DNA of 64,000 nucleotides from Nitrospiraceae bacterium (lineage in GTDB: Bacteria; Nitrospirota; Thermodesulfovibrionia; UBA6902): assembly GCA_003599025.1 (NCBI GenBank), contig QZIL01000002.1, forward strand, positions 1,371 through 65,370. The letters run 5' to 3'. The position numbers and the translations under genes are program-made. The notes under the pieces were generated by a model. It worked only from the letters and a program-made list of their open reading frames with translations. It was not told the DNA's origin and searched no databases. Positions 43,389 to 63,251 of the stretch are shown piece by piece (position 1 is the first letter of the stretch; each line of letters opens with the position of its first letter).

Positions 43389-44402
43389 TTACAGCTGTTT
43401 TGCAGTGCTGATTTCATCTTTCAGAAGTATCTCCACAGACGCCTTCCCGCGCAGGGACTTTGCGTAGAGATCAGCTTCCTGTTTTGCCTTTTCCTCAACG
43501 AGGGACTGACGTATCTGATCCTTGACGCTGTCATATGCCAGGATGGTTTCCGGCTTTCTTTCGCTGACCTTGAAAATATGAAACCCATATCCGGTCTCTA
43601 CAACATCGCTTGTTTCTCCAGGCTTCAGACTGAAGACAACGGCTTCGAGTTCCTTTTCAAGCTGCCCTGTCCTGACATAGCCTATATCGCCGCCGTCCGT
43701 CCTTGTAGGACCATCCGACTGCTCACGCGCAAGGGCCGCAAAATCCTGCCCGGCCTTCAGCTTCTTCATGATCTGGTCGGCCTTCTTCCTCGCCTCCTGT
43801 TTGCGGGAGTCCTCCAATTTAGGGTCAAGGTGAATGAGGATATGGCTTGCCCTGACCTGAAGCGGCTGCTTGAAGAGGTCCAGACGGCCCTCGTAATAGT
43901 TCATCATTTCGCTGTCAGTGACCGCAACCTTTGCGGCAAAGCGCCGTTCAATAAACTGCTGCACTGCGCTGTTTCTCTCCAGCCTGGCCCGCAATATATC
44001 CTCCGACATATTTTTCCTGCTTAACTGGTTTCTGAACTCCGTCACGCTCGGGAACTGCTGCATCAGCGCATTTATCCCCTTATTGACAGAGTTCTCATCC
44101 GGCTTGATGCCTGCCTTCCGGCTCTCCTGATTGAGGATTTCGAGCCGGACCAGGCTTTCAAGAACATCTACCTGGACGGCTTCGACCTGGCGCGTGGTAA
44201 GAGGCCTTCCAAACTCCAGAAGCGCCCTCTGTATTTTCAGGACCGCTTCATCAAATTCCACCTTTTCAATCGGCGCCCCGTTCACCATGGCCGCTTTATT
44301 GACCGGCTGGGGCTTCGCATCTTCCGCCCTGGCGGGAAAGGACATAACCATGAGACTGACAACCATTAACACGATATGATAAGTTAAGACTCTTCTCAGC
44401 AT
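43389..44402 (-). CDS. Periplasmic SurA/PpiD-like chaperone with parvulin (PpiC) PPIase domain
   Basis: It has a signal peptide and a SurA_N-like helical part, then RASHILIHL...DFAALAREQSDGPTRTDGGDIGYV...GYGFHIFKV, the parvulin rotamase core. Confidence 0.85.
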   Translation of the reverse strand: MLRRVLTYHIVLMVVSLMVMSFPARAEDAKPQPVNKAAMVNGAPIEKVEFDEAVLKIQRALLEFGRPLTTRQVEAVQVDVLESLVRLEILNQESRKAGIKPDENSVNKGINALMQQFPSVTEFRNQLSRKNMSEDILRARLERNSAVQQFIERRFAAKVAVTDSEMMNYYEGRLDLFKQPLQVRASHILIHLDPKLEDSRKQEARKKADQIMKKLKAGQDFAALAREQSDGPTRTDGGDIGYVRTGQLEKELEAVVFSLKPGETSDVVETGYGFHIFKVSERKPETILAYDSVKDQIRQSLVEEKAKQEADLYAKSLRGKASVEILLKDEISTAKQL

Positions 44403-44418
44403 TTTTCTTTACCTCACT

Positions 44419-45105
44419 TTATTTATTAATTTTCTTTTTTTCAATTTCCTCACGGTACTGCTGGAGGAGCTGCTCCAGCTCCACCTTCTTTACCTGTGTC
44501 AGGGGCTCCTTCTCCAGAAGGATTGTCCCCAGTCCCTTGTTCCTGTAATTCGTCACCAGCTCCTCCGCGATAATACCGAGGTCGGCATTATTCGCTTTGC
44601 AGCGGCCCAGGTCCTGCGCCGTCTTTTCCTGTTCAGCCTGAACAGTCTTTTTCTCAGCCGCTGACTTTTTTAACTCTGCCTGAAGCGCCTGCTTTTCTTC
44701 GGCCAGCTTTTTCAACTCACTGTCAAGGTCCTTGTTCTTCCGTCCCGTTTCCCGGGCCTCTTTATCGGCCCTGACAGCCGCCTCTTCCGATGTTTTGACC
44801 CTCAGCTCCAGCCCCTGCATCTGTCCGTTAAGTTTATTTAACTGCGCATCAAGTGTCTGCTTCTCGCTTCCGAGCCTGTCCAGTTCCGCCTGGGCCTGCT
44901 GTTCGGAAACAGACTCCTCATATTTCCCCTCCGCCATCTTTTTTTGCATGAAGGCGACTTTCTTTCCGGCCTCCTTGATCTTTTCATGCGCGGCCTCCCG
45001 CTCCTTATTGACTCTGCTGTTGCCAATGCTCAATCCGATGATCAGGCCGATAATGAGCGCTGCTACGGGGATTATGATTTTTAAAGGCCGGGACATACTG
45101 TTCAT
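44419..45105 (-). CDS. Membrane-anchored coiled-coil protein
   Basis: An N-terminal TM helix (IIIPVAALIIGLIIGLSIG) is followed by about 190 aa of heptad-rich Glu/Lys/Gln sequence. I recognise no family. Confidence 0.6.
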   Translation of the reverse strand: MNSMSRPLKIIIPVAALIIGLIIGLSIGNSRVNKEREAAHEKIKEAGKKVAFMQKKMAEGKYEESVSEQQAQAELDRLGSEKQTLDAQLNKLNGQMQGLELRVKTSEEAAVRADKEARETGRKNKDLDSELKKLAEEKQALQAELKKSAAEKKTVQAEQEKTAQDLGRCKANNADLGIIAEELVTNYRNKGLGTILLEKEPLTQVKKVELEQLLQQYREEIEKKKINK

Positions 45106-45120
45106 TTTTTACCTCCAGAC

Positions 45121-46977
45121 TTAAAATCTTGCATTTAAATCCACCTGCAGCACATCTATCGCCTGCTTAGGGCCGCTTATCTCATCCGCGGTCAGCCATC
45201 GAAGGGTAAGCCAGGCGTTCTTCATCAGGCCATATTCCGCTCCCAGTATCCAGCCCCTGGCATTTGTGCCTCCAAGGTGAAAGTCAGAATCCGTGAAGGC
45301 ATCCACAACTGCGTCGCCCCCCAGGTATTTATAATAGAGATACGCCTTCCAGGACGGGACCCAATCGTCGGGTGTCTCAATAGCGGGGGAATCAACGGAC
45401 ATCCCGAACTGATAGCCTGTAATATCTTTTTCAGGATCTGCTAGCCCGGTAAGATCAGAAACCTCGGATTTATCAAACCCGTAGTTCTTGACAAAATCGC
45501 CGAGGAAAACAACATGAACAGGGTCCCAGAACCCGATATCGAGGGTCCCGGTCAGGTTCATCTCCTTGAACTTTGATGCAAGCCCCACCTTGAAACTGTT
45601 GTTCGGATCAATATAGAACAAGGTGTTTCCCTTTTGCTGATACTGGGGGGCCGACCAGTCGGTGGGTCCGCTTTTATCCAGGGAATTATTGTTTCTCACG
45701 CCGGTGATGTTACTGAATAAATAGTAGGCCGCTCCGACTTTCGCGGATATCCCTTTCTTATGCTTCTTTTCCATCCCGATCTGTCCGCCCGTGAGCCACT
45801 TGGCCTTGGTGGAGAAGTCATCATACTGCAGGGGGAAAGCGCCTTCGGTAAGATAAAATGTCCATGAGTCTGTAATTGGCTTCCGCAAATTCAGGGCAAG
45901 CCCCTCGAAGTTTAAATCGCTGTCCCACACAAGGTCTGATGAAAACCAGGGATTGGGCATCCTTCCGCCATATGCAGTGAAAAGGGTCGGGAGGTAACCA
46001 GGTGACTTCTGATTAAACTTGAGATAGGCCTGCTCCAGGACTATGCCGTCTTTGTTCATATAATCGCCCAGGAGGGTATTGGTTGAAACTGGATTTGACG
46101 AATTCCCTGTAGCGAGACGTAAAGCGGCCTGCAGCTTTTGAGTTCCAAGCGGGTCTTCCGATATGTCCAGCTCAGTTCCGAAGCGGACCCGGTACTTGAA
46201 GCGATACTGGTTCGACCGTGTGTTAATAAGCTCCTGTGTATCAGCGCCCTGAGATATCCTGGTGAACTCATCAAAGTTGTTCTCGTCATACCGGTCATTC
46301 TCATACCGCAGCCGAACATCGCCGCTGAAACGCACGCGCTTGGTCCACTCAGGCGCGGCCGCGGCAAGTTCGGCGACCTTTCCGCCGTACAGCAGCTCCG
46401 CGATCTTCTGTTCAACGTATGACACTTTTTGATTGAGCTCCGCGATCTTTTCTTTCTCCTGTGCAGACGCCTCTTCAGCGGCAGGGACTGCATCTGCCGT
46501 CTTTATTTCCTTCGGCAGCGCCTCCTGCGCTTCGGTCTTCAACTGTTCAGGGATGCTTTTCCTGATCTCCTCGGTGACACTCGCAGTGATCTTCCCGATC
46601 TGTTCCTTCTCACGGTCCTGAAGCTCCCTGGACAACTCCTCCCTGACCTGGGCCATGATCTGTTCCTTGAGCTTTTGCATAAGTTCAGCGGTAACGGCTG
46701 CTGATATCCTGTCGATCATTTCCTGCTCGCTGAGCTGTGAAGCCGCAGGACCACCGTCTTTTTCTCCGGCCGGGGCAGATCCATCCTCCCGGCGCTGCTG
46801 ATCAGACCGGTCCGCTTCACTCCGGGGAGGTGTCTTCTCATGCCTGATCGTCAGCGGCACAGGGGCCGTGGCGCATCCGAAAATAATCGTCAGAAGCAAA
46901 ACCGCGATGCCTTTACTGATATGTCTTCTCAATTCCGTTGATGCTGTAAACACCGTAACTATGTCACTTCTTTTCAT
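45121..46977 (-). CDS. Outer-membrane protein: signal/possible lipobox, Glu-rich coiled-coil N-region, porin-like beta-barrel
   Basis: The N-terminus LLLTIIFGCATAP is a possible lipobox. Roughly residues 90-200 are charged coiled coil. The remainder shows alternating aromatic/Gly beta-strand patterning, and the C-terminal ...VLQVDLNARF is an OMP beta-signal with terminal Phe. Confidence 0.65.
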   Translation of the reverse strand: MKRSDIVTVFTASTELRRHISKGIAVLLLTIIFGCATAPVPLTIRHEKTPPRSEADRSDQQRREDGSAPAGEKDGGPAASQLSEQEMIDRISAAVTAELMQKLKEQIMAQVREELSRELQDREKEQIGKITASVTEEIRKSIPEQLKTEAQEALPKEIKTADAVPAAEEASAQEKEKIAELNQKVSYVEQKIAELLYGGKVAELAAAAPEWTKRVRFSGDVRLRYENDRYDENNFDEFTRISQGADTQELINTRSNQYRFKYRVRFGTELDISEDPLGTQKLQAALRLATGNSSNPVSTNTLLGDYMNKDGIVLEQAYLKFNQKSPGYLPTLFTAYGGRMPNPWFSSDLVWDSDLNFEGLALNLRKPITDSWTFYLTEGAFPLQYDDFSTKAKWLTGGQIGMEKKHKKGISAKVGAAYYLFSNITGVRNNNSLDKSGPTDWSAPQYQQKGNTLFYIDPNNSFKVGLASKFKEMNLTGTLDIGFWDPVHVVFLGDFVKNYGFDKSEVSDLTGLADPEKDITGYQFGMSVDSPAIETPDDWVPSWKAYLYYKYLGGDAVVDAFTDSDFHLGGTNARGWILGAEYGLMKNAWLTLRWLTADEISGPKQAIDVLQVDLNARF

Positions 46978-47083
46978 TATGTTCTCTCATGACCTCTCTT
47001 TCTGGGAAGTAAAACCAAACACTCATTAAGCAGTTTTTTTTAACTTCTGACTTCTCACTTCTTACTTTCCAACTTCTTTGTTG

Positions 47084-47797
47084 TTAGCTCTTAAAAGTCA
47101 TTTTGATCTTCATCGTACGAGGCATGCCGTCAGGCGGCGAATCGCTGAAACTGATATTGCCCAGGACCTGGTTTACCGTCTCATCCATTTTATGGTTCCC
47201 TGATGAGCCTATGATCCTGTGCTCAACGATATCGCCATCCGTGTCCACTTTCAATTTCACAACTACCTGAAGCGTTCCTCTTGGCAGCCCGCCTTCCATG
47301 TCCCAGAGCTTCATGATCCTTTTATGGATCTCACTTTCCACAAAGTGTGCATATCCGCCGTATTTAGACAGGAGAGACAGATTGCCGAGCCCGTTCCCTC
47401 CTTCTCCGGCAAGGAGGCTTCTCCCCCCTTTTTTCGCAACCAGCCCGAAGGCGTCGCTCCCCGCTGTGCCGTCCGAATCCACGCCGAGGCTGTCCCCCGC
47501 AGGCGCGTTGTCCGGCTCACCGGCAGGCCTGTCATTCGAGGCCGCCTCTTGCGGGACCTGAGCAATAACTTCCTCCTTCTGCTCCTGCCTGACCGGCTCA
47601 GGCTCCGGCGGTTTTTCCTTTATCTGCGGCGGGGGCGGCTTCAACAGGGTCACCATGGTAACGTTGTTTTTTTTCTGCGGACTATCGTCAGATATCACCA
47701 TTATTATGAAATAAACTGCAACAACGCACAGAGCGACCATCAGGGCAATGAACCCCCATGAGGCAGCGGACATTTTTTCAGTTTGTCTGTCGGACAT
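47084..47797 (-). CDS. tonB: TonB-family energy transducer
   Basis: It has an N-terminal TM anchor, a Pro-rich spacer (LKPPPPQIKEKPPEPEPV) and a C-terminal TonB_C-like domain (LQVVVKLKVDTDGDIVEHRIIGSSGNHKMDETV). Confidence 0.8.
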   Translation of the reverse strand: MSDRQTEKMSAASWGFIALMVALCVVAVYFIIMVISDDSPQKKNNVTMVTLLKPPPPQIKEKPPEPEPVRQEQKEEVIAQVPQEAASNDRPAGEPDNAPAGDSLGVDSDGTAGSDAFGLVAKKGGRSLLAGEGGNGLGNLSLLSKYGGYAHFVESEIHKRIMKLWDMEGGLPRGTLQVVVKLKVDTDGDIVEHRIIGSSGNHKMDETVNQVLGNISFSDSPPDGMPRTMKIKMTFKS

Positions 47798-47806
47798 ACG
47801 TTCCTC

Positions 47807-48217
47807 CTATTTGACGAGCTTTTGCGTCACGAGCGCAAGCTGGGTAATCTCCAGCCTCTGGAGCAAATCCAGCACCTCTATGACGCCTTTGTACGCTATT
47901 TTTTCATCTCCCCGGATCACCACGGGCAAATTAGGGTCCGCAGCTTTGTATTGGCGGAGCCTGTCTTCCAGTTCTCCCATAGTCACAGGGAAGCTGTCGA
48001 GATACATGGTCCCTTCCGAGGTGATGGTGATCGCCTTTGTCGTGGCCTTGACCTTGCCGGCAGCCGCGCTCGCCTTTGGAAGGTTGACGCTGATCCCCTG
48101 TACGGACGCCGTCACTACGATCATGAACACTAAAAGGAGGTTCCATGCAAGGTCCAGCATGGGAACGACGTTGATCTCATCGTATATCTCATGTTCTTCG
48201 TAGGGGTTATGCCTCAT
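47807..48217 (-). CDS. exbD: ExbD/TolR-family protein
   Basis: From ATG 48217 it reads MRHNPYEEHEIYDEINVVPMLDLAWNLLLVFMIV, the canonical ExbD TM with conserved Asp. This is followed by VNLPKA....ITITSEG..YLD and VVIRGDEKIAYKGVIEVLD. It overlaps the exbB-like gene by 11 nt. Confidence 0.85.
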   Translation of the reverse strand: MRHNPYEEHEIYDEINVVPMLDLAWNLLLVFMIVVTASVQGISVNLPKASAAAGKVKATTKAITITSEGTMYLDSFPVTMGELEDRLRQYKAADPNLPVVIRGDEKIAYKGVIEVLDLLQRLEITQLALVTQKLVK

Positions 48218-50063
48218 GACGCGGCCCTTTCTCCTCTTCCAGCTTAAGAATGAAGTCATCGATGAAGACATTGACGTCCGCATTCATGTTCTTGATATTG
48301 CCGGTAATATAGCTGCTTGCGAACAGGGCTGGAATTGCGATCAGGAGGCCTGCCATGGTACAGGCAAGCGCAGAGGCGACCCCGGGCGCAATGGCTGCGA
48401 GGTTCGCTTCGCCGCTCTCTGCAAGGCTTGCAAAGGTGTTCATGACCCCCCAGACCGTGCCGAGAAGACCCAAAAACGGCCCGCCCGCAACACTCATGTT
48501 CATGATAACCATGCCAGCCGCCAGTTTTCTGCTTTCATACATGGCCTGCTTTTCCACCGCTGCTTTAAACCCGTTCATGGCCCTTTCCGACAACCCGCTC
48601 CCGTGTTTTGATGTTTCCCCTTTTTTCTCCATCAAACGCCTCAGCTCAACACAGCCTGCGCGATACACCCGGTAGAGCGTCGAATGCTGAAAGTCCTGTT
48701 CCTTGTCAAAGAGGGACATCGGATTATCCATCCCTCTGAAATTCTCCGAGAAGGTTTCGTTCCCTTTTCCGGCAAGACGGAATATTGTTATCTTCTGCTG
48801 AAAGATGTACACGGACGCGAATCCCATGAGGATCAGAAATCCGATAATAAGCCAGCCGTCAAGGGTGATGGTCCTGATAATGACCTTCATGAGATGGACT
48901 GTCAGCGATTCTCCGCTGCCTCCGCCTTCCTCCGGCTCCATGTAAGACATCAGCATGCCGTCCGGTCCCTGGCCCTGGAAGGCGGCCCTTATCCATCCGG
49001 CAGATCTGGCTGTGCCGGACAATTGCATCTCGTCCACATCTCCGGTAAAGACATTGCTCCCTTTCACCGATGCGCCGATGATGATGTCGGCAGCCGGCGC
49101 AGGGACCATTCCCTTGAGTTTGATATACGCGGCCTGTCTGCCGTCGAGATACAGTGTGATCTGGTTGTCAGGGTCTGCTGTCACGGCCAGATGGTGCCAG
49201 CCCTTCGGGGTCAGTACCGCTGTTTTCGGCGTCACCGTCGCCTGCCCCTTGCCGGTACTGAGACTACAGTAGACCTTCGATTCTTCCACTCCAACAGTGA
49301 ACGACTGCTTCCCGTCGTCCCAGGATAAAAAATGCGTATTGCCTTCAGACTGGTTGACGCGGACCCACGTGGAGAAGGTAAACCCCTTGGTAAAATTAAG
49401 CGACGACGCCCTGGTAATAGTCATCAACTCTCCGGCCCCGCTGAACTGGGCGCCGTTTCCCACAACTGAAGGGACACCGAGCTTCCCTGAAAACGAGGCC
49501 GCGTGATTGCTGTAGGCCGTTGCGTCACGCGGATTGCCATCCTCATCGCCCAGGTGATAGACAGCCACCTGGTTCACATCGTACGTGCCGCCCGCGTCCT
49601 GGCCGTCAGGTGCAGAATCATTCCCATAATACATCCATATGGAATCCTGACTGCCGCCCCCGGATATCCTGGGGACCTTGACCCATATGAGGGCGATCTC
49701 TTCTATAGGATCAAACTTCTCTATGTGATATTTCAGGGGAGACTTATCGTCAAGGCTTACAAACCTGAGGTCCGAACCATCCTCTTTTGCGCTTGGAAAA
49801 CTGAAGTTGCCTGTATGCAGGCGGACCAGCAGCGGGACATCAGCGACATTCTCATCGATTCCGGCCCCGTTTGAAGAAGTATCAAATTGAATCTTCATCC
49901 TCTGCTGCCACTTCCCGTCCCACCATGCATTAGCATCAGGGACCATAAACAGTCCGATAGTAATCATCAGCAACACAATCAGCGCTGAGATTTTATTCAG
50001 CCTCAGTTCCGATAAAAAGGCCCCCGGAACACCTCTTTCAACTTTGTCTTTCTTTCTGTCCAC
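48207..50063 (-). CDS. Fusion protein: DUF2341 + LamG/concanavalin-like lectin domain + MotA/TolQ/ExbB proton channel
   Basis: A signal-anchor is followed by WWDGKWQQRMKIQFDTS...VPLLVRLH...GSDLRFV (DUF2341). Next comes FTFSTWVR...GWHHLAVTAD...ITLYLDG..VDEMQLS (LamG-like). It ends with three TM helices containing GGPFLGLLGTVWGVMNTF...IAPGVASALACTMAGLLIAIPA (ExbB core). Confidence 0.8.
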   Translation of the reverse strand: MDRKKDKVERGVPGAFLSELRLNKISALIVLLMITIGLFMVPDANAWWDGKWQQRMKIQFDTSSNGAGIDENVADVPLLVRLHTGNFSFPSAKEDGSDLRFVSLDDKSPLKYHIEKFDPIEEIALIWVKVPRISGGGSQDSIWMYYGNDSAPDGQDAGGTYDVNQVAVYHLGDEDGNPRDATAYSNHAASFSGKLGVPSVVGNGAQFSGAGELMTITRASSLNFTKGFTFSTWVRVNQSEGNTHFLSWDDGKQSFTVGVEESKVYCSLSTGKGQATVTPKTAVLTPKGWHHLAVTADPDNQITLYLDGRQAAYIKLKGMVPAPAADIIIGASVKGSNVFTGDVDEMQLSGTARSAGWIRAAFQGQGPDGMLMSYMEPEEGGGSGESLTVHLMKVIIRTITLDGWLIIGFLILMGFASVYIFQQKITIFRLAGKGNETFSENFRGMDNPMSLFDKEQDFQHSTLYRVYRAGCVELRRLMEKKGETSKHGSGLSERAMNGFKAAVEKQAMYESRKLAAGMVIMNMSVAGGPFLGLLGTVWGVMNTFASLAESGEANLAAIAPGVASALACTMAGLLIAIPALFASSYITGNIKNMNADVNVFIDDFILKLEEEKGPRHEA

Positions 50064-56000: not shown

Positions 56001-59000
56001 GGTGACCCAGATGTTGTTGGAGTTGATCGCATCGTACAGTACCTCCGTATCTCCGGCGGTTGTCAAAACACTGCCCCCGGCCAGATAGATGCGGCTGCCG
56101 GCAGCGGTGGTAAGCGGGTTGTCATCATGATAAGGGTCCTCGTCGATGACAGCAGTTGTGAGTGTGATAGTCCCCAGGGGAGCTGCTAATGTGCCCCTGT
56201 GTTCGATCCCTGTGCCTGCCTCAACCGTAAGGTTTCCGCCTGCCGAGTAGATTGGACCGCCCGTACGTGTATCCGAGGGGAGAATGGTAATCTTGCCGTC
56301 GGCATGCAGGGTGTAATCAGAGTATATATTGGGATAGATTGTGCCGAGTGTATCCTGATACGTGTAAAAATTCCCCGGATAGATGCGGTCTGCTTTAAAA
56401 ATCATATCGCCTGCTGTGACAAGCTTGCCGGGTTTTACAAGCGCCTCTCCGGCTTTGCCTGAGAGCTTGTATGACGCCTGGCTCAGGCGAATGTCCCGCC
56501 TCGCTTCAATATGGACGTCCTTAAACCCGGTAAACTGCACGGTCCCGATCACATCGACCCATGTGCCTTTCAGGTTAATGAGAGCGTCTCCTGTCACGCC
56601 GCTTACCCCTGGTGTTTGTGTAACGGGGTAGTAACTGTTTGCCAGAACGATCCACGGCGCTTCAAGAGTCACCCCGTTCGACCCGGGACCCTCGATTTCC
56701 GGGGCATCGAGGGTCAACTTTCTGTTGAGTGCGACATTCATGGGCCCGCTGAACCGGAGAGATTTCCAGCTCCTCAGGGTCAGGTCATCGAAACCCAGGT
56801 CCTTATAACGGACAATGTCTTCGGCCCTGACAACCAGTGGATTGTTTTCATTTTGCCGGCTGATGGCCAGGGCGGCCCTCTTTATCCCTGCCATGTTCAC
56901 CCCGGTCTTCACATCGCCCATCCAGTCCATAGCATTTATGTAATTCAGAGTAAGGCTCCCGGGGTCTCCGGCCTCCTGGAAAGTGATAATGCTTCCATCC
57001 GCGGCCCTTATCCTGTTCTCGATTCTTTCAGACCCGGAGATGTCAATAATGGAACCTTCCTCCAGGGTCACATTGTACCCCGTAAGGGTAACGCTCCCTG
57101 CCTTGACCGGCTGATAATTCACCTCAAAGCCCTTTGGCGTTGTTGAAGGATCAGGCCGGTTGTAGCCTCCGGCCAATATTCTCGCGGTCGATTTGATTAT
57201 CATATCCGCGCTATTGCCTTCACCTTTAAGATTGATCGCACCCCCGCGAGCTTCGAGTGTCCCTGCTATCGTAACAGAGGTTTTCGCCTTACCCGAACCT
57301 GAAAAAGTGATTTCCCCCCCGGGCGCCGTCCGGACCGAGGCCCTTTCGGAAACAGTAATTCCAGCCTGATCGACATCAATGTCGTGCTGTCTTAAATTTC
57401 CCTGGTTATATCCCGTGGCCCCGGTAAAGTCACTGCCGGCAGTCCCTTTGAAGGAAGATGTCCCGGCCATGTATGCCGTGGACTCACTGAGCCTGAGGAG
57501 ATCGGGCCGGACGGGGACCTCAGCGCCCGCGACATTTGCCGCCTGCAGGGCAGACACAGGGGCGTTCAGCCGTACCAGAGACGTGGAGATGGCAATGTCG
57601 GGATCTATAACAATGTCTCCATAACTTTTAAGCGTGATGTTCGTAAAGCCTGTATCGTCGAAGCGATCGCCGGCCAGCAGGAGCGTCCCGCTGTTCAGAT
57701 CATCTTTGTACAGACCGCCAGATGCCGCATTAAAACCCGACCAGTCATTCCCTTCGGACCCCACACGGATCTCCGTGGATGTCAAGGTGATGGAGCCTCC
57801 TGATATCTTCCCGCTCCCATCAGCCAGTGCATATCCCCGGAGATCTCCATCAAGCATGATATTCGATCCCTGGATGGTCAATGCGCCTGCATTCGCGCCC
57901 TTGACTTTGCCCCCGGGGTCAATAGAATAACCGCCGCTTACATCCGCAATGGCCCCGGCCTGTATGAAGACACCATCTCCCAAATCCGTTTCATCAAGAA
58001 TTTCAATAACGCCGCCCCCGGTCAGGCCGTATCTGAAATCGGTATTGCCTGCTTTTCCCGCATGAGTATTGTCGATCCTCTCCCCTGAAACATCCAGCAT
58101 GCTTCCTTGTCCGAGGACAATCCTCTCCTGCAGCGGAACAAAGCTGCCTTCCTCTTTAAGGTTCCCGTTATAATCCGTGGGACTTGTAAGGTTCTCCCTG
58201 ATTAACATCCTGATCGTACCGGCAGGCGCCTTAATCTTCCCTCTGTGCTCAATCCTGCGCGTATCAATTTCAAAAGCGCCTCCCGGCTGCAAAGTAATAC
58301 CGGCCCCCTGCGCCGTCTGGACAGTCTCCAGCGCCGCTAACTGTATGGTATCCAGTTTCGCGTCATTCAGGGTCTTCGCTGAAAGGACAGTAGGCTGTTT
58401 CTCCGGCAAGCTGGAATCAGGGGTGATACCGGAATGGGGTGATGTTTCGGAAAGGATTAATATAGAAGACGGCTGGCTGCTCAACGCTTCATTATATGTA
58501 TCAATATCGCCTAAGATAAACGTGCCTGCCTTCGGAGCTTCAAGGCCGCGCGCCGCAGAAATGGCATACTCCTCTGATCCCCTGTCTGTAGTTACAAGAT
58601 TCTGGTGAATTCCACGCATCACACTCCCGTCGAGCCGACCGTCCAGGTAGACCGTAGCCGCTTTCAACCTGAGTGTACCTGCATCGCCGCCCTTTAACTG
58701 GCTGGGGACATGCGTCTGCAGCGGAGATGCGCCGCCGTAATAAAGGCCGTAATATGAGTCCTTAGTGCCGAACCGTTCAAATACCTTCTCATACTGCCCG
58801 ATAGTCTTGTCATACCTGATATTCAAGGGGGCACTGCTGATATCATATATCTTCTTGCCTGACACTAATTTTGTTGAATTTATAAAACCCTCGGCATAGC
58901 GGGCCGCGCCGCCGGAAAAATCAAGCAGCGCCCCCTCTTTGATAATTATGTCGCCCGCATTGACTGTTATGTCTATCATCCCGGTCTGGGACTTCCACTT

Positions 59001-60473
59001 CCACGTTCCGGTTTTGTCGTCTTTTTCTTTTCTAAGGGCGCCCCCGATGCTGCGCTCCAGGGCCGTCCTTTCCCCGCTCAGGTACACCTGTGAAAGATCG
59101 CCGATGGCAGTGCCTGAAGTGACAGGGGTTGTGATCTTCATTCCCGGTACGAGACCGCTCTTCTGTCCATAGGCATCGCGGAGCTCGACACTGGTCAGTT
59201 TGAAGTCAGAGAGGATTGATGGAGGAAGATATGCCTCAACGCCGCTTACATCGATACGGCTGCCTGCTTCGAGATATACCCTCTGTCCGGCTTTCAGCAC
59301 GACATTTCCTGCAGGCGCAGTAACGGCCCCCCTCAGCTCGATCGAGCCTGCTGACGTCTCTGAAATACTGCCTTCAGGATCCAGAATATCCAGGCCCTTG
59401 ATGGTCACCTCAGGCTGGATAATAAATGTATCACTGACCGTTTCTGTTGTTGACGGGTTGACCGGAAGGGAGATTTCACTGTTCTTCCCTGTTGTTACTT
59501 TGCCTGCGGCCCTGAGCTCTACCTCTCCTTTGTTGTTCTTGAAGGCGGTCATGGACCGAATCGTCCCCATCTGATCAACAGCTCCTCCGTACATGCCTGC
59601 CAGTCCCCCATCGGCATACAGCCGTCCCCCTTCCTGGTTCACGGAATAGCCGGACCCGGCTTGTTTTACGATGACATAATAAGCCACTCTATTATTGTTA
59701 TGTACCAGATCTGCATCAGTACCCGCAATCAGGCCTATCTGCCCTGCCGGGGTGTTAATCACTCCGGCATTTTCTGTAAAAGGCCCGAGGAGAAAGACCT
59801 GCCCTCCGTCTTTGGCGTTTATCTCTCCATGGTTCGAGACGAAGGCGTTAGGATCAAGCGTTGCCGTGTCGTCAATCTCTTTGCGGTAATTCTCATGTTT
59901 GAATTTGAGGACGTTGCCGATAAAATCCTCATCCTTGATGTTCAAAGCCGAGGCCGCGAGGCTGCCGACGTTGATCCTGGAGCCAGGGCCGAAGAGGATG
60001 CCGTTCTGGTTTATGAGATATATCTTTCCGTCTGCTGTAAGTTTTCCTAAAATGTAGGAAGGGTCCTTGTCCCATATCCGGTTGAGGGCGGCCCAGTCTG
60101 CATTTCCCTTCTGGTCGAAACGGACCTCTGAATCAGCTCCGATATCAAAGGTCTTCCAGTTTATTATGGCCTTTTCTTCGGTCTGGTTAATTGTCATTTT
60201 ATTGCCCTGAATACCCGGCGTTTCCGCGCCCCTCTCAATGTTGTTTAACTCTGGAAGAGCATGCGCCGATGGTCCATTGAACGTCCTCATCCCCCCGGAA
60301 AAGCCGGGGATAGTGACCCCGGGACCTGTTTTATTGGGTAAATTTATATTAGGAGCCGCGGACTTTCCGCTGTATACGCCGGGTTGGGCGGCCAGTACGA
60401 AATCAGGAAGCAGCACAAGGAGGCACAAAATCACCCGGAGCATCTTGTCTATAAAGCCCTTTAACATATTCAT
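50067..60473 (-). CDS. Giant two-partner-secretion exoprotein (TpsA; filamentous haemagglutinin family), 3468 aa
   Basis: After the signal peptide, the N-terminal TPS domain reads NQTEEKAIINWKTFDIGADSEVRFDQ...ALNRI...SYILGKLTADGKIYLINQNGILFGPGSRINVGSLAASAL. About 3000 aa of Gly/Asp/Thr/Ala-rich beta-helix-type sequence follow. The conserved C-terminal region GDITIWSDEGNINAGRGS... is like the C-terminal domain of FHA-family proteins, and the acidic tail is QEEEEE. Confidence 0.9.
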   Translation of the reverse strand: MNMLKGFIDKMLRVILCLLVLLPDFVLAAQPGVYSGKSAAPNINLPNKTGPGVTIPGFSGGMRTFNGPSAHALPELNNIERGAETPGIQGNKMTINQTEEKAIINWKTFDIGADSEVRFDQKGNADWAALNRIWDKDPSYILGKLTADGKIYLINQNGILFGPGSRINVGSLAASALNIKDEDFIGNVLKFKHENYRKEIDDTATLDPNAFVSNHGEINAKDGGQVFLLGPFTENAGVINTPAGQIGLIAGTDADLVHNNNRVAYYVIVKQAGSGYSVNQEGGRLYADGGLAGMYGGAVDQMGTIRSMTAFKNNKGEVELRAAGKVTTGKNSEISLPVNPSTTETVSDTFIIQPEVTIKGLDILDPEGSISETSAGSIELRGAVTAPAGNVVLKAGQRVYLEAGSRIDVSGVEAYLPPSILSDFKLTSVELRDAYGQKSGLVPGMKITTPVTSGTAIGDLSQVYLSGERTALERSIGGALRKEKDDKTGTWKWKSQTGMIDITVNAGDIIIKEGALLDFSGGAARYAEGFINSTKLVSGKKIYDISSAPLNIRYDKTIGQYEKVFERFGTKDSYYGLYYGGASPLQTHVPSQLKGGDAGTLRLKAATVYLDGRLDGSVMRGIHQNLVTTDRGSEEYAISAARGLEAPKAGTFILGDIDTYNEALSSQPSSILILSETSPHSGITPDSSLPEKQPTVLSAKTLNDAKLDTIQLAALETVQTAQGAGITLQPGGAFEIDTRRIEHRGKIKAPAGTIRMLIRENLTSPTDYNGNLKEEGSFVPLQERIVLGQGSMLDVSGERIDNTHAGKAGNTDFRYGLTGGGVIEILDETDLGDGVFIQAGAIADVSGGYSIDPGGKVKGANAGALTIQGSNIMLDGDLRGYALADGSGKISGGSITLTSTEIRVGSEGNDWSGFNAASGGLYKDDLNSGTLLLAGDRFDDTGFTNITLKSYGDIVIDPDIAISTSLVRLNAPVSALQAANVAGAEVPVRPDLLRLSESTAYMAGTSSFKGTAGSDFTGATGYNQGNLRQHDIDVDQAGITVSERASVRTAPGGEITFSGSGKAKTSVTIAGTLEARGGAINLKGEGNSADMIIKSTARILAGGYNRPDPSTTPKGFEVNYQPVKAGSVTLTGYNVTLEEGSIIDISGSERIENRIRAADGSIITFQEAGDPGSLTLNYINAMDWMGDVKTGVNMAGIKRAALAISRQNENNPLVVRAEDIVRYKDLGFDDLTLRSWKSLRFSGPMNVALNRKLTLDAPEIEGPGSNGVTLEAPWIVLANSYYPVTQTPGVSGVTGDALINLKGTWVDVIGTVQFTGFKDVHIEARRDIRLSQASYKLSGKAGEALVKPGKLVTAGDMIFKADRIYPGNFYTYQDTLGTIYPNIYSDYTLHADGKITILPSDTRTGGPIYSAGGNLTVEAGTGIEHRGTLAAPLGTITLTTAVIDEDPYHDDNPLTTAAGSRIYLAGGSVLTTAGDTEVLYDAINSNNIWVTEDKKKPGQFDAADDTNIVTLPFGQETLPQKGIELEADETIVREGAKIDASGGGSFFAYRFLPGIEGTGNPLEKSGRYIVFKDNGFQMPGTSVYLKGGGGLSEGMYTMVPLGPGNAQNARYAFMPGAYILELQAGPSIPGPWLVSKYGYPLVVGYAGVADTTILGTRPQVYSVRSASDVMTEGHFDKQGMIAGNAGDLTVKGNTTIIDGDLNAGPLASIYRGGKISLSGKNISVEQMTGSLLPGGFGYETSFDSTAYLMDLKDKLTIDARGLSNREFREVELGYLNPDTPQDKLNTESIIFESGTYLEAAGISVSARDNITIMEGTSERPTTLYARTEKDKDSGEGVLTLNTPGSLSAGPDSLLHAAHNIIFEVNKVDEIQGALQVDNSAITLKSRAITFTEARKTSNDAGLFLNKKLLQAFSQFEDMTFIAGYSDVATEIRFMDAYDLIAAESITMDAARIIGDNGPGVTLAAPAVTLTNSGDRTDASSTAGHDTEAGIFAVNASEQVTVGSGDILLGGFRTIALNSAGDVVFKGKGSLATGNADLEITAARVTTGAAHEAGGTYQPPDFRVIAGAGKNDLNPANLIRMMRPDNGQAATTGVPGGTLEFAARKIELGTVLQVDGGDIKLTTAGAKGEDGKFLAPSDEDGIILKDGGSIIARGTDDAPGGRVVLATNFIDETGQEQSGKIELQNGSLIDVSAGAQGDAGIITLSAPVGGVMIYGDVKGAAGKKKDKSIGRGGSLVVDTNKFAKEIIEFSTLISKVEEGGFTASLDLRARSGDIDIDNGEMLKAHKIKLTADGGAINVDGIIDASAYEGSYYPDGGTVELYAQDDLNLDGSILAGGINGGEGGYVQLSSSEGDVIVNAEEINVSGSEGGIVYLRARRNDSEGFRDVAISLNHSVTGASALYVEAVRRYGYDGFNFTSALDDAHAHYANAPVERLSNKVDADTTSFHYLPGIEVVSIGDINWNTQWDVSGVRFGGEQEPGVLTLRAGGNLYINNNLVDHPTSLANLPGSAGRDSWAFNLVAGSYTVGAAPLAVVHGKGDLKIADQKVVYTEHAPVRFASGRDTLVGRGQDTPLGFMIDPTMRYNLASPYGDIQGDIGRDLIINGGAIQTATGDIAIDIGRDLQLNTAIVSGLSTLGAIRTTGMLRTDDTTDVDPPYDDPSSKPKPMLADKDNYFNTPNSNTLTYYWRYADGGNITLDVGRHVGTISNGEWTSAMPPATNAWDYFTPILKPGGSTRNNTVLEKYGWFSASYARQSVYTLSSPKEKKQFDTTSGLAAMGGGDLYIRTGSDFLTQAGAFGEGDLAIYAGGNVDGRLLNRMGQGEIHAMGNFGSADKSQQIELFDSRMSVAAEGAMKIGSVLNPSLASDQLNQYYWINCTYTQYTGISLKAGEDLTFAGVSPLYTPTGHDISKFAKILPANVEIKAGGNILLLSDDLTLTSSPDGRLRLDAGVDIVQAVRTASSYSGKAAGITMSDIAPKYWYGLFRVYKDLVSNGGLTWNTERTLYNHHGYFKPEDAVLQALASPLHSGDTREIGISAGRDIRNLGLYAAKKTEIRAGRDILDMTYEGQNISTGDVTMIKAGRDIRMQYEKKSKTGGLIQGGPGVFLVQAGNSIDLGTSNNAVVDQKLIYGGLQAIGNGNNVLLGTEKSTLVVLSGYDQNLPADMIRTFFDDIRDAGDQYAELLSEGKSAEAAELRETTRDATIKPLLGTPSGEGNINMIASQIGTSIGQSDIFVIAAGSMNLGKTALPIAGQKSDDFTGVWTGGGGAINIFTGYDVNVNESRIMTFYGGDITIWSDEGNINAGRGSRTAVSASPARMEEYPAGSGIYRKVFSPPVLGSGIRAVTFDPDGSGPLAMPEPGDIHLTAPSGVIDAGEAGITGGKIILAALEVKNSANISFSAGSVGVPQASTSGAALGGLTGGAGSVAQPGQMAGDATPGIAAERTAQAAQMIDDILMKWLDVKVIDLVQEEEEE

Positions 60474-60490: not shown

Positions 60491-62092
60491 TTAAAAAATT
60501 GCCTTTACCAGAAAATGGACTCTCTGGTCGCCGCTCTTTATCCTGTCCGTCGACCTGAGGGCCACTGCCCAGTCCAGTTCGTATTCAATATTCTTTGTTA
60601 TCGAGCCCCGCACTCCTGCCCCCGCCCCCTCTATTTTTGTGCTCTTGTCCTGTCCGGGAAGCGGTGATTTGATGGACATTGCCGCCACGTCATAGAAGAT
60701 ATAGGGGCCCGTCCGGAGCCACTTTCCAATTCCGGTCGTTTCAACAGGGTCAGGGAAAGAGACCTCCAACGTACAATGCACACCGTTGTCTCCTGAGGCT
60801 TCGCTTTCTTTATATCCCCTCACGGTGTCCATGCCGCCTGCCGTATATTGCTCATTGTCGATAAGCGGCTGATCAGACACCTGTCCGTCCACTTTAGCGA
60901 AAAGGACCATTCCGAGCGGCAGCTTCTGTGTCCGCTGGATGCCCAGATTGGCATAGAGGTAATTTGCCCTTGCCTTGAAGCGCTTGTCCTCAAACTCCGT
61001 TTCCCTGGAGCCTAATCCGCGCAGGGACAGGTTAAGTCCCCCGCTGAACTGGGTCGTCCCGCCCAACTCATCAGGCAGTGAAGCGCTGTACGAAAGTGAG
61101 AGCGGCAGATACGAAACGGGGGTCTCCGTTGTCTCTCCGCTTTCTGTTGTGAAACCGACGGCCTGATCGAAATGCTTGTAATCTATGCCGAGTGTCATGT
61201 TATGGTCGTAGAGCTTATATGACGGCAGGGGCATCACATAGCGCGCCCCGAATATCTCCCCCTTGCCTGTCACCTTGAACCCCTCGCCGAACGCGGTGTC
61301 ACTGTCAGACCAGATGCCGTAAAACGCAAGCTGGCGGTCTTTGTCCCATGGCGACGGAAGTACATATGAAGCGCCCAGCACCTGCGCCTCCTTTATCTTC
61401 TGCGGCGATGCCTGGTACTGAAAGGACAGGCTGTGTTCCTTTTGCCAGAGATTGTCATAGCGGACCATGGCGTTCAGCCGCAGTTCAGACGTGTCATGAC
61501 TGGCCCTGTTGTTGAGCTCAAGGGAGCCGTGCAAAGGCAGACGGTCCTCAACTTTCAGCTCTATATCGATGGTCCCCGGTTTCTTTCCGGGGGACATACT
61601 CGGGGTGACCTTGAAATCAGGATTTCTGTTCAGGAAGGCGATATCACTCTGCACGTCCGGCAGATAGATTATCCTTCCCGGCCAGAGGGACTTCAGGTCC
61701 CTCATGACCTTCCCCGATGTAAAATACCGGTTTCCGGTGACCTTCACTTGCCCTATCCGTCCCTCTATTACCTCAAGCTTTACGATGTTGTCCTGCAATG
61801 TCTGTTCCGGGATATTCACGATCACCGAAGGATACCCTGCATTGTGATAGAGCCTCTCAAGGGCGTCCCGCGCCTTTTCTACGTCAGCAACTGTCTTTCC
61901 GGTGCCGGTGAAGGGCATAACGGCGGCCCTCAGCTCAAGCGGGGACAAAAGGCTGTTCCCTGTTATTTCAAAATCCCTGATCATAAATCCTATGTCCTCG
62001 TTGTCCGCAGCCGGGCATTCTTCATGCGCCAGCGCATTGATCACAAAAATAGCAGCCATAAGATAGAAGATGAACGGAGTAATCCTCTTCAT
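60491..62092 (-). CDS. TpsB transporter (ShlB/FhaC/HecB family; POTRA domains plus Omp85-type barrel)
   Basis: POTRA reads IRDFEITGNSLLSPLELRAAVMPFTGTGKTVADVEKARDALERLYHNAGY. A second POTRA follows, then a barrel containing the TAGGMDTVRGY (VRGY/F L6 loop) motif and a terminal Phe (LVKAIF). Confidence 0.9.
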   Translation of the reverse strand: MKRITPFIFYLMAAIFVINALAHEECPAADNEDIGFMIRDFEITGNSLLSPLELRAAVMPFTGTGKTVADVEKARDALERLYHNAGYPSVIVNIPEQTLQDNIVKLEVIEGRIGQVKVTGNRYFTSGKVMRDLKSLWPGRIIYLPDVQSDIAFLNRNPDFKVTPSMSPGKKPGTIDIELKVEDRLPLHGSLELNNRASHDTSELRLNAMVRYDNLWQKEHSLSFQYQASPQKIKEAQVLGASYVLPSPWDKDRQLAFYGIWSDSDTAFGEGFKVTGKGEIFGARYVMPLPSYKLYDHNMTLGIDYKHFDQAVGFTTESGETTETPVSYLPLSLSYSASLPDELGGTTQFSGGLNLSLRGLGSRETEFEDKRFKARANYLYANLGIQRTQKLPLGMVLFAKVDGQVSDQPLIDNEQYTAGGMDTVRGYKESEASGDNGVHCTLEVSFPDPVETTGIGKWLRTGPYIFYDVAAMSIKSPLPGQDKSTKIEGAGAGVRGSITKNIEYELDWAVALRSTDRIKSGDQRVHFLVKAIF

Positions 62093-62098
62093 CTTTCG

Positions 62099-62989
62099 CT
62101 ATTTCCCCATGCCGCTTGCGGCCAGCTTTGCGTGCTCAGCCTTGTCGACCGTCACGTCACAGAACAGTTTTTCCCCTCCGAATGGATGCCTGTAGTTAAT
62201 GGTAATAATTTCGTCAGTTACGTCGGTAATACGGCCTACAAGGGGACCGCTGCGGACCAGGCTGCCTTTGCGGGCTTTGATATCGAGTTTATAATTCTTT
62301 TCATCATGATAAATACGTCCCAGTCCAAAAGGTGTCTGTATCACATCTCCGGGAGTAGCGTTAAAACGGACCGTTACCTTCCCCCCGGTGACAGCGGTAA
62401 CTCTCCCCGGGAATGACGGGTCGATGCTAAATGATTGCCCTACTTCCGGTGACTTGCCGGTCCGGTCCGCGTATTCGTCCACCGGCATTGTCATTACCTT
62501 CGGCCGCGTGCGAACACGCGCCATTCGCAGTATGTAATACTCTTCGTCTTTCGCCGATGACTCCAGGGCAGTGATCTCCAGTTGACGCCGCTCTCCCTCT
62601 TGCATGCCGGCCACCGCTCTGGCAAGCCGTTCCAGGACCGCTTCATCAAAGGGCTCTTCAGGCCTTAATGGGAACGGCTCATCAGGGCGGACCGCTACAA
62701 CCGAGAGGGGGCCGGTCTCTTTTCTCGTGACAAAAATACCGGACTTCGACTGTTCATCGGGGACGCTGCCGGAGGCCGCGACCACTTCTCCGCTTTTCAA
62801 ACGGCATAAATAACTGATTTCAGCCCTGTCCCCGGTCTCAACAATCCCGGCCTTTGCAGTGTCTGAGACATCACCTTGAACATCCTTAGCAGTGTCTGCT
62901 GCCCAACTAAACACGGATTGCGTCAGCAGCAAAGCCGCCGTCAAACTGATCATAGTCCCGCGGGAAAATATCCGGGGATTACCCCTCAT
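62099..62989 (-). CDS. Secreted FKBP-type PPIase, SlyD-like with insert-in-flap domain
   Basis: Start taken at ATG 62989 (GGGGGAGAca-ATG), giving MRGNPRIFSRGTMISLTAALLLTQSVFSWA; the track ORF extends to 63079. GDRAEISYLCRLKSGEVV, VAGMQEGERRQLEI, and INYRHPFGGEKLFCDVTV match FKBP/SlyD (DFNHPLAGKxLxFxV). Confidence 0.7.
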   Translation of the reverse strand: MRGNPRIFSRGTMISLTAALLLTQSVFSWAADTAKDVQGDVSDTAKAGIVETGDRAEISYLCRLKSGEVVAASGSVPDEQSKSGIFVTRKETGPLSVVAVRPDEPFPLRPEEPFDEAVLERLARAVAGMQEGERRQLEITALESSAKDEEYYILRMARVRTRPKVMTMPVDEYADRTGKSPEVGQSFSIDPSFPGRVTAVTGGKVTVRFNATPGDVIQTPFGLGRIYHDEKNYKLDIKARKGSLVRSGPLVGRITDVTDEIITINYRHPFGGEKLFCDVTVDKAEHAKLAASGMGK

Positions 62990-63044
62990 TGTCTCCCCCA
63001 GCGATTGTGTCCGCGCAAAAACCTGTTTTTGATATGCCGATTTT

Positions 63045-63251
63045 TTATAAAGCTCCATGATGCACACCATTCCCTCCATTTTTCTTTATCCCGTTCCCTC
63101 CATGCATGAGCGCCGTCTGTGCGACTTCGACCTCCTCGGATTTTTCTACCCGCCCGAGGCTGCCCTGGGTGAAGTTGATTTTTAGGTACCCGCTGAATTC
63201 CTCATCGGAAAGACTCTTGATTGCATCGGCAAGTCTTTTCATTCTGTCCAT
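63045..63251 (-). CDS. Small protein, YezD/DUF2292-like; first gene of the TPS operon
   Basis: Start at ATG 63251 (ACAGGAGGTttatca-ATG). FSGYLKINFTQGSLGRVEKSEEVEV resembles the DUF2292 pattern (GSVTIxxxxGRVVQIEKTEK). Confidence 0.4.
   Translation of the reverse strand: MDRMKRLADAIKSLSDEEFSGYLKINFTQGSLGRVEKSEEVEVAQTALMHGGNGIKKNGGNGVHHGAL

Follow-up and report, generated by a model that had tools for sequence, protein, structure and literature searches.

A two-partner secretion pair and a Ton/Tol-like motor form one conserved unit in Nitrospirota and Desulfobacterota and may serve a tethered adhesin fibre

Results

A ten-gene operon holds a two-partner secretion pair and its own motor genes

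We studied a 64,000-nucleotide stretch of the genome of a Nitrospiraceae bacterium (GenBank assembly GCA_003599025.1, contig QZIL01000002.1, positions 1,371 to 65,370; hereafter, the window), in which ten consecutive open reading frames (ORFs) run on the minus strand from position 63251 down to 43389 (Table 1). In order, these encode a small protein, an FKBP-like protein, the transporter TpsB and the giant exoprotein TpsA of a two-partner secretion (TPS) system, a DUF2341-LamG-ExbB fusion, an ExbD/TolR-type subunit, a TonB/TolA-like protein, a Porin_5 lipoprotein, a coiled-coil protein and a SurA-like chaperone. An earlier note, drawn from the letters of this window, had described the ten genes as an operon; every ORF lies where it had been placed, and searches of Pfam and NCBIfam bore out the domain labels other than "YezD" for the first gene and FKBP for the second, to which the matches were sub-threshold. 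The evidence presented throughout is comparative and predictive, and the genomes that carry the system are mostly metagenome-assembled genomes (MAGs).

TpsA carries an N-terminal TPS secretion domain, and tpsB, which adjoins tpsA with 17 nt between its end and the tpsA start, encodes the cognate Omp85-type transporter. At the other end of tpsA, the TAA stop codon (50067-50069) is followed by GAG and then by the GTG start of the fusion gene at 50063, with a GAGGAG ribosome-binding site just upstream of this GTG, within the end of tpsA. The 3-nt spacing reported for this junction therefore holds provided that the GTG start is the one used; the NCBI gene call, of 586 aa, would cost the protein its signal-anchor segment, which homologues in alignment A1 conserve. 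Similarly, the reported 11-nt overlap of the fusion gene and exbD stands with an ExbD start at M23 (48217), which gives a homologue-like length of 136-140 aa, and the largest gap (46978-47083) measures 106 nt rather than 107. A promoter and terminator scan of the operon gave counts not above those of shuffled sequence and was uninformative on internal transcript ends.

Table 1. Features of the operon, of its upstream region and of the gene pair A-B near related modules
Feature	Position	Strand	Basis
Conserved small protein, 68 aa, no signal peptide; first operon gene	63045..63251	-	ORF and homologues
Divergent SlyD-type FKBP-like protein, signal peptide	62099..62989	-	sub-threshold FKBP matches
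TpsB, Omp85-type transporter, POTRA and ShlB barrel	60491..62092	-	PF03865 79.9 bits; PF08479 (POTRA_2) 55.1 bits
TpsA, 3468-aa beta-helical exoprotein	50067..60473	-	Pfam TPS 85.9 bits; DUF3739 102.2 bits; TIGR01901 76.6 bits (cutoff 29.1)
TPS domain of TpsA, N-terminal	59559-60209	-	PF05860 85.9 bits (cutoff 33.5)
DUF3739 of TpsA, C-terminal	50271-50624	-	Pfam 102.2 bits
TpsA linker, G/A/S/T/Q-rich, predicted disordered, about residues 3405-3438	50160..50261	-	pLDDT <50 at model residues 406-439
TpsA strand motif W-L-D-V-K-V-I-D-L, residues 3453-3461	50091..50117	-	then acidic tail QEEEEE
DUF2341-LamG-ExbB fusion with signal-anchor	48207..50063	-	Pfam DUF2341, Laminin_G_3 and MotA_ExbB
DUF2341 of fusion, periplasmic	49578-49781	-	Pfam
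LamG of fusion	48990-49421	-	Pfam Laminin_G_3
Channel of fusion, MotA/TolQ/ExbB, three transmembrane helices	48279-48590	-	PF01618 87.4 bits
ExbD/TolR-type subunit, 136 aa from M23	47807..48217	-	PF02472 91 bits; full ORF 47807-48283
TonB/TolA-like protein	47084..47797	-	PF13103 (TonB_2) 43.8 bits; TIGR01352 (tonB_Cterm) 34.5 bits (cutoff 27.1)
Porin_5 outer-membrane lipoprotein, 618 aa	45121..46977	-	PF16930, E 1e-121
228-aa protein, N-terminal transmembrane anchor and periplasmic coiled coil	44419..45105	-	sequence; weak coiled-coil-type matches
SurA-N and parvulin periplasmic chaperone/peptidyl-prolyl isomerase, last operon gene	43389..44402	-	Rotamase 100.5 bits; SurA_N_3 49.7 bits
c-di-GMP-I-GGC riboswitch aptamer	63500..63578	+	Rfam RF03167 73.3 bits (gathering score 59), E 1.8e-15
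Secreted Peptidase_S8 (subtilase) gene, cut by window end	63639..64000	+	PF00082 35.8 bits
Gene pair A-B	L089 6369-8377; L098 3355-5451; L114 4903-7359; L124 3121-5369		
Gene pair A-B, downstream	L004, L010, L012, L022	-	

The linkage of the TPS pair and the motor is conserved

Homologues of the fusion fell into 896 clusters at E<=1e-10, and the full DUF2341-LamG-ExbB architecture was present in all but one of the best 120 of these 896. Searching the fusion alignment against one genome per GTDB species yielded at least 30 loci with the full fusion, and the locus counts given are lower bounds. The carriers are Nitrospirota, Syntrophobacteraceae, Desulfuromonadaceae, Geobacter, Geoanaerobacter, Desulfosarcinaceae, Desulfobacterales, Desulfarculaceae, Desulfatiglandaceae and Desulfobulbaceae, the last with an isolate, Desulfobulbus elongatus DSM 2908, together with a few MAGs labelled NC10, Pirellulales and WOR-3. 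Mapping the neighbours of the listed loci by tblastn with the ten window proteins placed the TpsA C-terminus directly upstream of the fusion in 24 of the 27 informative loci listed (TpsB: 1 of 27) and ExbD and TonB downstream of it in every listed locus with enough sequence. Porin_5 followed the motor genes in 24 of 25 listed loci and the coiled-coil gene came immediately after Porin_5 in 18 of 21, so that both proteins are conserved members of the unit, while a SurA-like gene was found in only 6 of 21. Among individual neighbourhoods, that of P0041 (68% identity) reads TpsA (TPS and DUF3739), TpsB, fusion, ExbD, TonB, Porin_5, a protein of about 230 aa and a SurA-like protein, and that of P0118 (51% identity) reads DUF3739 protein, fusion, ExbD, TonB and Porin_5. 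Metagenome loci centred on TpsB showed the small protein, FKBP-like protein, TpsB and TpsA in all relatives with TpsB of at least 46% identity, and the fusion after TpsA wherever the contigs were long enough.

The earlier note had offered as a check whether the fusion occurs together with TpsA/TpsB and the 618-aa barrel; it did so in 25 of the 27 informative genomes listed. Because the order is kept across phyla, adjacency is far above chance, in keeping with the claim that it is not accidental, and we conclude that the TPS pair and the ExbB-fusion/ExbD/TonB motor are one conserved unit across Nitrospirota and many Desulfobacterota orders. One of the two exceptions is an NC10-labelled MAG (L009, 9788-11566), where, directly downstream of carA, the fusion gene is in frame with the start of carB (preATP-grasp domain), a junction that almost certainly stems from chimeric assembly or from a deletion. 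A literature search returned no paper linking TPS with ExbBD/TonB, or treating DUF3739 or Porin_5 in such a context.

The motor resembles both Ton and Tol systems

The fusion matched the TolQ and ExbB pentamer structures in the PDB equally well (E 2e-19 to 2.5e-15). By profile, its channel scored 126 bits with tolQ (cutoff 221) and 81 bits with exbB, the ExbD-type subunit scored 82 bits with tolR (cutoff 127) and 62 bits with the ExbD model, and all motor subunits fell below the equivalog cut-offs of both the Ton and the Tol systems. The motor looks functional, because the transmembrane Asp is present in ExbD (PMLDLAW) and alignment A1 shows no substitution of the channel threonines T536 and T569 of the fusion. 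The TonB-like protein has an N-terminal transmembrane helix, a Pro-rich spacer and a TonB-family C-domain ending in PPPDGMP, with the conserved motif LG[LV]D.EG.AGSDAFGL..KKGGR, and it showed a weak match to GltJ (E 0.0034). The ExbB and ExbD channel subunits and the anchored, Pro-rich TonB of a Ton system are thus present. No plug-containing TonB-dependent transporter with a TonB box was found in the window ORFs scanned or in the Porin_5 model, and neither TonB-dependent receptor nor plug families matched the scanned ORFs, which included every one of at least 594 aa; this agrees with the previous statement that no plug-type receptor is encoded. The components that would define Tol-Pal were likewise absent, with no TolB, Pal or CpoB domain in the operon by Pfam and NCBIfam. 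Sequence searches of the PDB gave nothing useful for the TonB-like protein, the TpsA C-terminus or Porin_5.

Unlike either system, the ExbB-type subunit carries a periplasmic DUF2341-LamG module of about 350 residues. Used as a query (48909-49931, minus strand, 341 aa), the module matched 1,313 cluster representatives at E<=1e-30, including giant proteins of about 1,500-7,800 residues in which up to 24 tandem stretches matched with 25-34% identity; about 30 clusters of fusions of about 600 aa were among the best 150 matches listed. Since tandem cassettes recur in giant proteins, DUF2341-LamG looks like an adhesin-type binding module, a reusable block of giant, presumably surface, proteins. Work on stator evolution lists DUF2341-ExbB fusions as uncharacterised (PMC12505986), and this was the only paper found that names them.

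TpsA ends in a disordered linker and a conserved terminal motif

We modelled TpsA residues 3000-3468 with AlphaFold2 (AF2) from a 48-sequence alignment (predicted local distance difference test, pLDDT, 81). In the model the beta-helix continues with one helical hairpin to about residue 3394, its last rungs being DUF3739, and is followed by about 35-40 residues with pLDDT <50 and then by a short low-confidence element. Alignment columns of the linker are weakly conserved (about 1.3-2.3 bits). When 26 motor-linked TpsAs from genomes are aligned over their last 90 residues, the chain is seen to end with the motif KW-L-x-V-x-V-φ-x-F and an acidic stretch of variable length. The motif is found in all 26 sequences (W 21/26, L 19/26, V 24/26, V/F 25/26, F/Y 22/26) and, counting five metagenome tails that read KWLDVKV[IM]DF, in 31 of 31 complete tails. 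Its columns reach 3-3.9 bits, forming a sharp conservation peak at the extreme C-terminus of TpsA, and it is the sole strongly conserved element past the end of the helix.

In form, the tail motif resembles a TonB-box or TolA-box docking strand, making it a candidate for binding by the TonB-like C-domain. The only universal short motif of a docking type lies at the very end of TpsA, after a disordered linker, a position that speaks more for a tethered fibre being anchored, pulled or released than for powered translocation. A fold search with the C-terminal model returned non-significant, generic beta-helices only. We also considered the tail as a PEP-CTERM sorting signal, which was ruled out, as it is acidic and has neither a hydrophobic helix nor a basic cluster.

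TpsB appears to lack the plug helix

In the structures of FhaC and CdiB, an N-terminal H1 helix and a linker block the barrel of TpsB at rest. In the window TpsB, POTRA1 follows the signal peptide after only about 13 residues, and 42 relatives have equally short N-termini, the family range being 5-15 residues before the first POTRA strand. The alignment with CdiB (6wim) begins some 40 residues along the solved chain, TpsB residue 29 being matched to chain residue 47. On account of the short N-terminus and of where the CdiB alignment starts, the H1 plug helix and linker appear to be missing from this TpsB clade (L086-L160 homologues).

The 618-aa protein is predicted to be a stalked, plug-less porin

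The AF2 model of the Porin_5 protein (63 sequences, pLDDT 74) shows a lipobox Cys35, a disordered stretch, two long stalk helices (84-207) and a plug-less barrel (215-618). Its best fold match was OmpM1 (8bys; E 5e-13, TM-score 0.72 on target, 14% sequence identity), with OmpF-type porins next. The combination of a porin barrel with a periplasmic coiled-coil stalk suggests a plug-less OmpM-like stalked porin and no TonB-dependent receptor, and such a model fits the envelope-spanning scaffold that the earlier note had imagined. PF16930 was the sole family matched by the 618-aa protein, in which no SLH domain was found. Near its N-terminus, short conserved strand-like segments were seen, which in Nitrospirota follow the lipid Cys as PVTIxHESTPS and in several Desulfobacterota read AILVVPRDQEY; these are not universal, being absent in L016, L018, L021, L029 and L030. 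Porin_5 as a TonB-gated receptor was downgraded on both counts, the plug-less model and the patchy strand motifs.

The N-terminal 60-250 residues of Porin_5 in Desulfobacterota (L004, L010-L018, L022, L026, L030, L031, L033, L038) hold one to several SHOCT-like repeats, LLxLLKxKGVISxEEAxxL, ahead of the coiled-coil stalk. The window Porin_5 has none of these and instead has the lipobox and a PVxLTIRHEKTPP segment conserved in Nitrospirota.

Riboswitches for cyclic di-GMP and PEP-CTERM genes lie near the module in relatives

A probable cyclic di-GMP (c-di-GMP) riboswitch (Rfam clan CL00126), which the earlier note did not mention, sits in the 370-nt divergent intergenic region upstream of the operon, with a score above the Rfam gathering threshold; the ligand of the GGC variant is putative. 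In 12 related loci the module is flanked by a riboswitch of this clan, which immediately precedes tpsB in L122 and L124 and tpsA in L116, and in most of the others stands before a conserved gene pair that we call A-B. Protein A (about 250 aa) has a VPLPA/PEP-CTERM sorting signal (TIGR03370 30.7 and 28.8 bits; cutoff 25.35) and is weakly similar to the flocculation protein PepA, and protein B (400-550 aa) is PstS-like, of the PBP_like_2 family. Some 30 related loci have the pair beside the module, in some placed upstream of the small protein and in others lying downstream on the opposite strand in the order small protein, riboswitch, A, B. Among 26 related loci searched with Rfam, at least 8 have a c-di-GMP-I riboswitch ahead of the pair. 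From the riboswitches and PEP-CTERM (PepA-like) genes near the module in relatives, we infer that the system belongs to a c-di-GMP-linked aggregation, biofilm or matrix programme.

The window riboswitch lies ahead of a subtilase gene that is transcribed divergently from the operon, and a cyclic-dinucleotide-controlled subtilase beside a giant adhesin operon recalls SphB1 and the LapG-type control of adhesin release. The subtilase was tried as a conserved maturation protease and set aside, its 120-aa N-terminal fragment giving no match adjoining the module in relatives. On a 2.8-Mb Nitrospiraceae contig (L001, 13343-16892), an 815-aa sedolisin-like gene (Pro-kuma_activ) and an exosortase gene (EpsH) lie between the tonB-like and Porin_5 genes. 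In a Desulfosarcinaceae locus (L018, 19415-21261), two cobalamin riboswitches and one c-di-GMP-I-GGC riboswitch lie about 4-6 kb downstream of the module.

The first gene, the isomerase-like genes and the surroundings

The first gene of the operon had been called YezD-like; four members of its family gave no Pfam or NCBIfam match at all, YezD/DUF2292 included, even at E<=1, so that the label is not supported. The small protein has 19 non-identical homologues adjoining the module in relatives, and its core motif is G-Y-I-K-I-N-F-[ST]-Q-G-S-[IL]-G-R-[VI]-E-K. For the second gene, described before as a secreted SlyD/FKBP peptidyl-prolyl isomerase (PPIase), the longest ORF begins at 63079 and a start at 62989 fits the length of homologues. 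The protein has a signal peptide, and its Pfam matches to FKBP models stay below threshold (FKBP_C 17.4 bits, cutoff 21.1; FKBP26_IF 18.9 bits, cutoff 27); relatives match similarly weakly and have a C-terminal HPFGGE signature, the threshold being passed only by the duplicated second module of L115. This gene lies directly upstream of tpsB in 27 related loci and encodes a lipoprotein in most relatives. The idea of two PPIases as dedicated parts was not supported, both being peripheral: the SurA-like gene is infrequent, as counted above, and the FKBP-like gene is confined to the closer clade, with weak PPIase identity. In L114, L115 and L123 the FKBP-like lipoprotein is tandem-duplicated and fused to a C-terminal thioredoxin-like domain (Thioredoxin_7), and in L116 and L156 a single FKBP-like module is joined to such a domain.

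Below 43389 lie unrelated genes for a low-molecular-weight phosphatase, HMA, DksA-type, CorA and MetK proteins and a P-type ATPase, and the remainder of the window consists of housekeeping genes.

Discussion

Type V secretion, including TPS, is textbook outer-membrane transport without an energy source, and Ton and Tol motors act on plug-type receptors or on TolB-Pal. To our knowledge, no energy source at the outer membrane is known for TPS export. The operon described here combines the two kinds of system. All of its parts belong to known families (TPS, MotA/ExbB superfamily, TonB C-domain, porins), and the features that define classical Ton, Tol-Pal and canonical TpsB systems are not all present; there is a substantial chance that it is a new kind of energised adhesin machine.

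The closest secretion relatives are Bordetella FhaB/FhaC and Pseudomonas CdrA/CdrB with LapG, which share the TPS domain, the beta-helical shaft and the Omp85/POTRA transporter. In FhaB, the C-terminal prodomain can remain periplasmic and control tethering or release (PMC4542190, PMC8263021), and CdrA has a periplasmic C-terminus that is cleaved by periplasmic LapG (PMC4694147); the C-terminal segment of TpsA could stay in the periplasm to similar effect, and CdrA also shares the link to c-di-GMP. In contrast to both, the operon adds to the TPS pair a dedicated motor (ExbB-fusion/ExbD/TonB-like), together with a stalked porin and a coiled-coil protein, its TpsB appears to be without H1, and its TpsA tail is a linker and strand motif of about 65 residues, with no large prodomain. 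It also differs from CdrA in having no LapG/LapD and a riboswitch instead of a protein receptor for c-di-GMP.

With Ton and Tol-Pal the motor shares the channel threonines of the MotA/ExbB family, the transmembrane Asp of ExbD/TolR and a Pro-rich, periplasm-spanning TonB-family protein, and the partner proposed for it is, as with the TonB box and the TolB N-terminus, a short hydrophobic strand within a disordered end (PMC7066135). It departs from them in lacking a plug receptor, TolB, Pal and CpoB, in the periplasmic DUF2341-LamG part of its ExbB, in a TonB-like transmembrane helix without His and in the proposed target, the C-terminus of a secreted fibre. The one precedent that we found for protein export dependent on a Ton system, Oar/PopC of Myxococcus xanthus, likewise ties a Ton-type energiser to the fate of an exported protein (PMC6434023); Oar, however, is a classical plug-containing TonB-dependent transporter and PopC a soluble protease, whereas here an Omp85 transporter, a plug-less porin and a giant fibre are found. 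The Porin_5 protein shares with Veillonella OmpM1 a porin-like barrel and, ahead of it, a long helical stalk in the periplasm, but has no SLH domain that was detected, its N-terminus being lipid-anchored and disordered in Nitrospirota or made of SHOCT-like repeats in Desulfobacterota. Finally, in GldLM/SprB and in Agl-Glt with its TonB-like GltG/GltJ, a MotA/ExbB-superfamily proton motor is coupled via the periplasm to a large surface adhesin; secretion here takes the type Vb route, not that of type IX or Glt, and no further component was found to be shared.

Our leading reading, which we hold tentatively and at a little below even confidence, is that the operon makes a c-di-GMP-linked, cell-tethered adhesin fibre whose C-terminal handle, kept in the periplasm, is gripped by the dedicated Ton/Tol-like motor. 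The inference of a tethered tail builds on the complexes of TonB with the TonB box and of TolA with TolB, in which a short hydrophobic strand on a disordered terminus transmits force (PMC7066135), and on the periplasmic TpsA C-termini of FhaB and CdrA. TpsA would be exported N-terminus first through TpsB, with the FKBP-like and SurA-like proteins chaperoning the unfolded giant chain during periplasmic transit, and would fold outside into a beta-helical fibre. The last ~65 residues would stay behind, the disordered linker threading the TpsB pore without its H1 plug helix, so that the strand KW-L-x-V-x-V-φ-x-F would be exposed in the periplasm. There the TonB-like C-domain would bind it by beta-strand augmentation, as in TonB/TonB box and TolA/TolB N-terminus, and the ExbB-fusion/ExbD motor would turn proton flow into a pull on the TpsA handle. 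Membrane energy would in this way tension, retract or forcibly release the tethered fibre, release being analogous to the stripping of TolB from Pal by TolA. The stalked porin and the coiled-coil protein would brace both membranes at the site, and the five LamG/DUF2341 modules on the ExbB pentamer may bind a periplasmic partner, either a glycan or the fibre. The full claim, that the TonB/TolA-like protein with its lectin-decorated ExbB-ExbD motor grips the TpsA handle via a plug-less TpsB for retraction, tension or ejection driven by the proton motive force (PMF), and so represents a new class of energised type V machine, is possible but on the unlikely side.

Several observations weigh against a motor-gripped TpsA tail. 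Contact of the TonB-like protein with the tail is proposed from the form and position of the motif only, and in the TpsA monomer model the motif region is a low-confidence helix and no strand. The transmembrane helix of the TonB-like protein is without the His of the SxxxH motif, and E. coli TonB and TolA use a transmembrane-helix His for coupling. The apparent absence of H1 is read from TpsB sequences, and either of the Porin_5 N-terminal strands could be the TonB target in place of the TpsA tail. As for regulation, the window riboswitch faces the subtilase gene and not the operon, and neither homologues of proteins A and B nor PEP-CTERM/exosortase features were found within the window. One MAG (L028, 85-9153) has the fusion/ExbD/TonB trio without TpsA or Porin_5, flanked by a PstS-like PBP_like_2 gene on one side and by an OmpR-type regulator and an ABC transporter (SBP_bac_11, two permeases, ATPase with a TOBE domain) on the other.

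Other readings of the same genes have to be weighed against the tethered fibre. That the adjacency is an accident, or an assembly artefact joining two unrelated operons, can practically be dismissed: the source is a MAG and the fusion/carB junction of L009 is clearly chimeric, but the same order recurs in 25 of the 27 informative species-level genomes listed, in two phyla, including Mb-scale contigs and an isolate genome, and also in independent metagenome contigs, and this conservation already refutes it. The motor might instead energise export itself, one of the options in the earlier note, with PMF-driven TonB action on TpsB or on the translocating chain opening the plug-less TpsB or driving passage and folding of the 3468-aa substrate. 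The same TPS-motor linkage would be expected, a TpsB without the usual H1 gate may need another gating principle, and Oar/PopC is a case of protein export served by a Ton system (PMC6434023); we nevertheless consider this unlikely, given that the short, variable TpsB N-terminus has no conserved TonB-box-like strand visible, that TonB pulls inward while export runs outward, and that the conserved motif is on the part of TpsA that is last to leave the periplasm. We attach similarly low credence to a Tol-like tethering or matrix-export device that serves the whole c-di-GMP surface island (stalked porin, PEP-CTERM and PstS-like proteins), tpsA being merely co-expressed and TpsA not contacted. The higher TolQ and TolR scores of the channel subunits (126 against 81 and 82 against 62 bits) agree with it, as do OmpM-like stalked porins being outer-membrane tethers, the exosortase and sedolisin-like genes inserted between tonB and Porin_5 in L001, and PEP-CTERM genes as conserved neighbours. 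It would leave the universal TpsA tail motif unexplained, however, and the tpsA/fusion junction is the tightest and most conserved of all, while an exosortase within the locus was seen in only one genome.

TonB-energised uptake, with TpsA as a surface capture protein in the way that HxuA is for HxuC, Porin_5 as a gated channel and LamG binding the imported ligand or glycan in the periplasm, strikes us as very unlikely. Porin_5 is nearly always present (24 of 25 listed loci), many lineages have periplasmic N-terminal extensions of it with short strand-like motifs, a PstS-like binding protein is a conserved neighbour, and HxuA/HxuB/HxuC provides a precedent for TPS with a TonB-dependent receptor (PMC4873976). 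Yet the Porin_5 model is plug-less, like general or OmpM-type porins, its strand motifs fail in the five loci named above, no inner-membrane transporter is conserved at the locus, and the c-di-GMP and PEP-CTERM context points to adhesion. Surface motility, in which the motor would move the giant adhesin to propel the cell in the manner of GldLM/SprB (Flavobacterium) or Agl-Glt (Myxococcus), is to our minds highly improbable. A giant adhesin, a PMF motor, a TonB-like protein and outer-membrane barrels are indeed combined here, and the TonB-like protein has its weak GltJ match, but no other Glt or Gld homologues were found in the operon with Pfam and NCBIfam, the riboswitch and floc-type PEP-CTERM context favours sessile aggregation, and we do not know of gliding as a trait of the carrier lineages.

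If the tethered, motor-gripped fibre is right, membrane energy would be applied also to a secreted adhesin fibre, via a TPS pair joined to its own Ton/Tol-like motor in two phyla. It would also give DUF2341-ExbB fusions, as well as the Porin_5 and DUF3739 families, a first functional context. The predictions can be tested, given the defined tail motif, the motor and the fact that one carrier, Desulfobulbus elongatus DSM 2908, is in culture. The carriers are syntrophic and sediment anaerobes, for which aggregation is ecologically central, and adhesion of these anaerobic sediment bacteria to one another and to surfaces would then be actively powered and c-di-GMP-gated.

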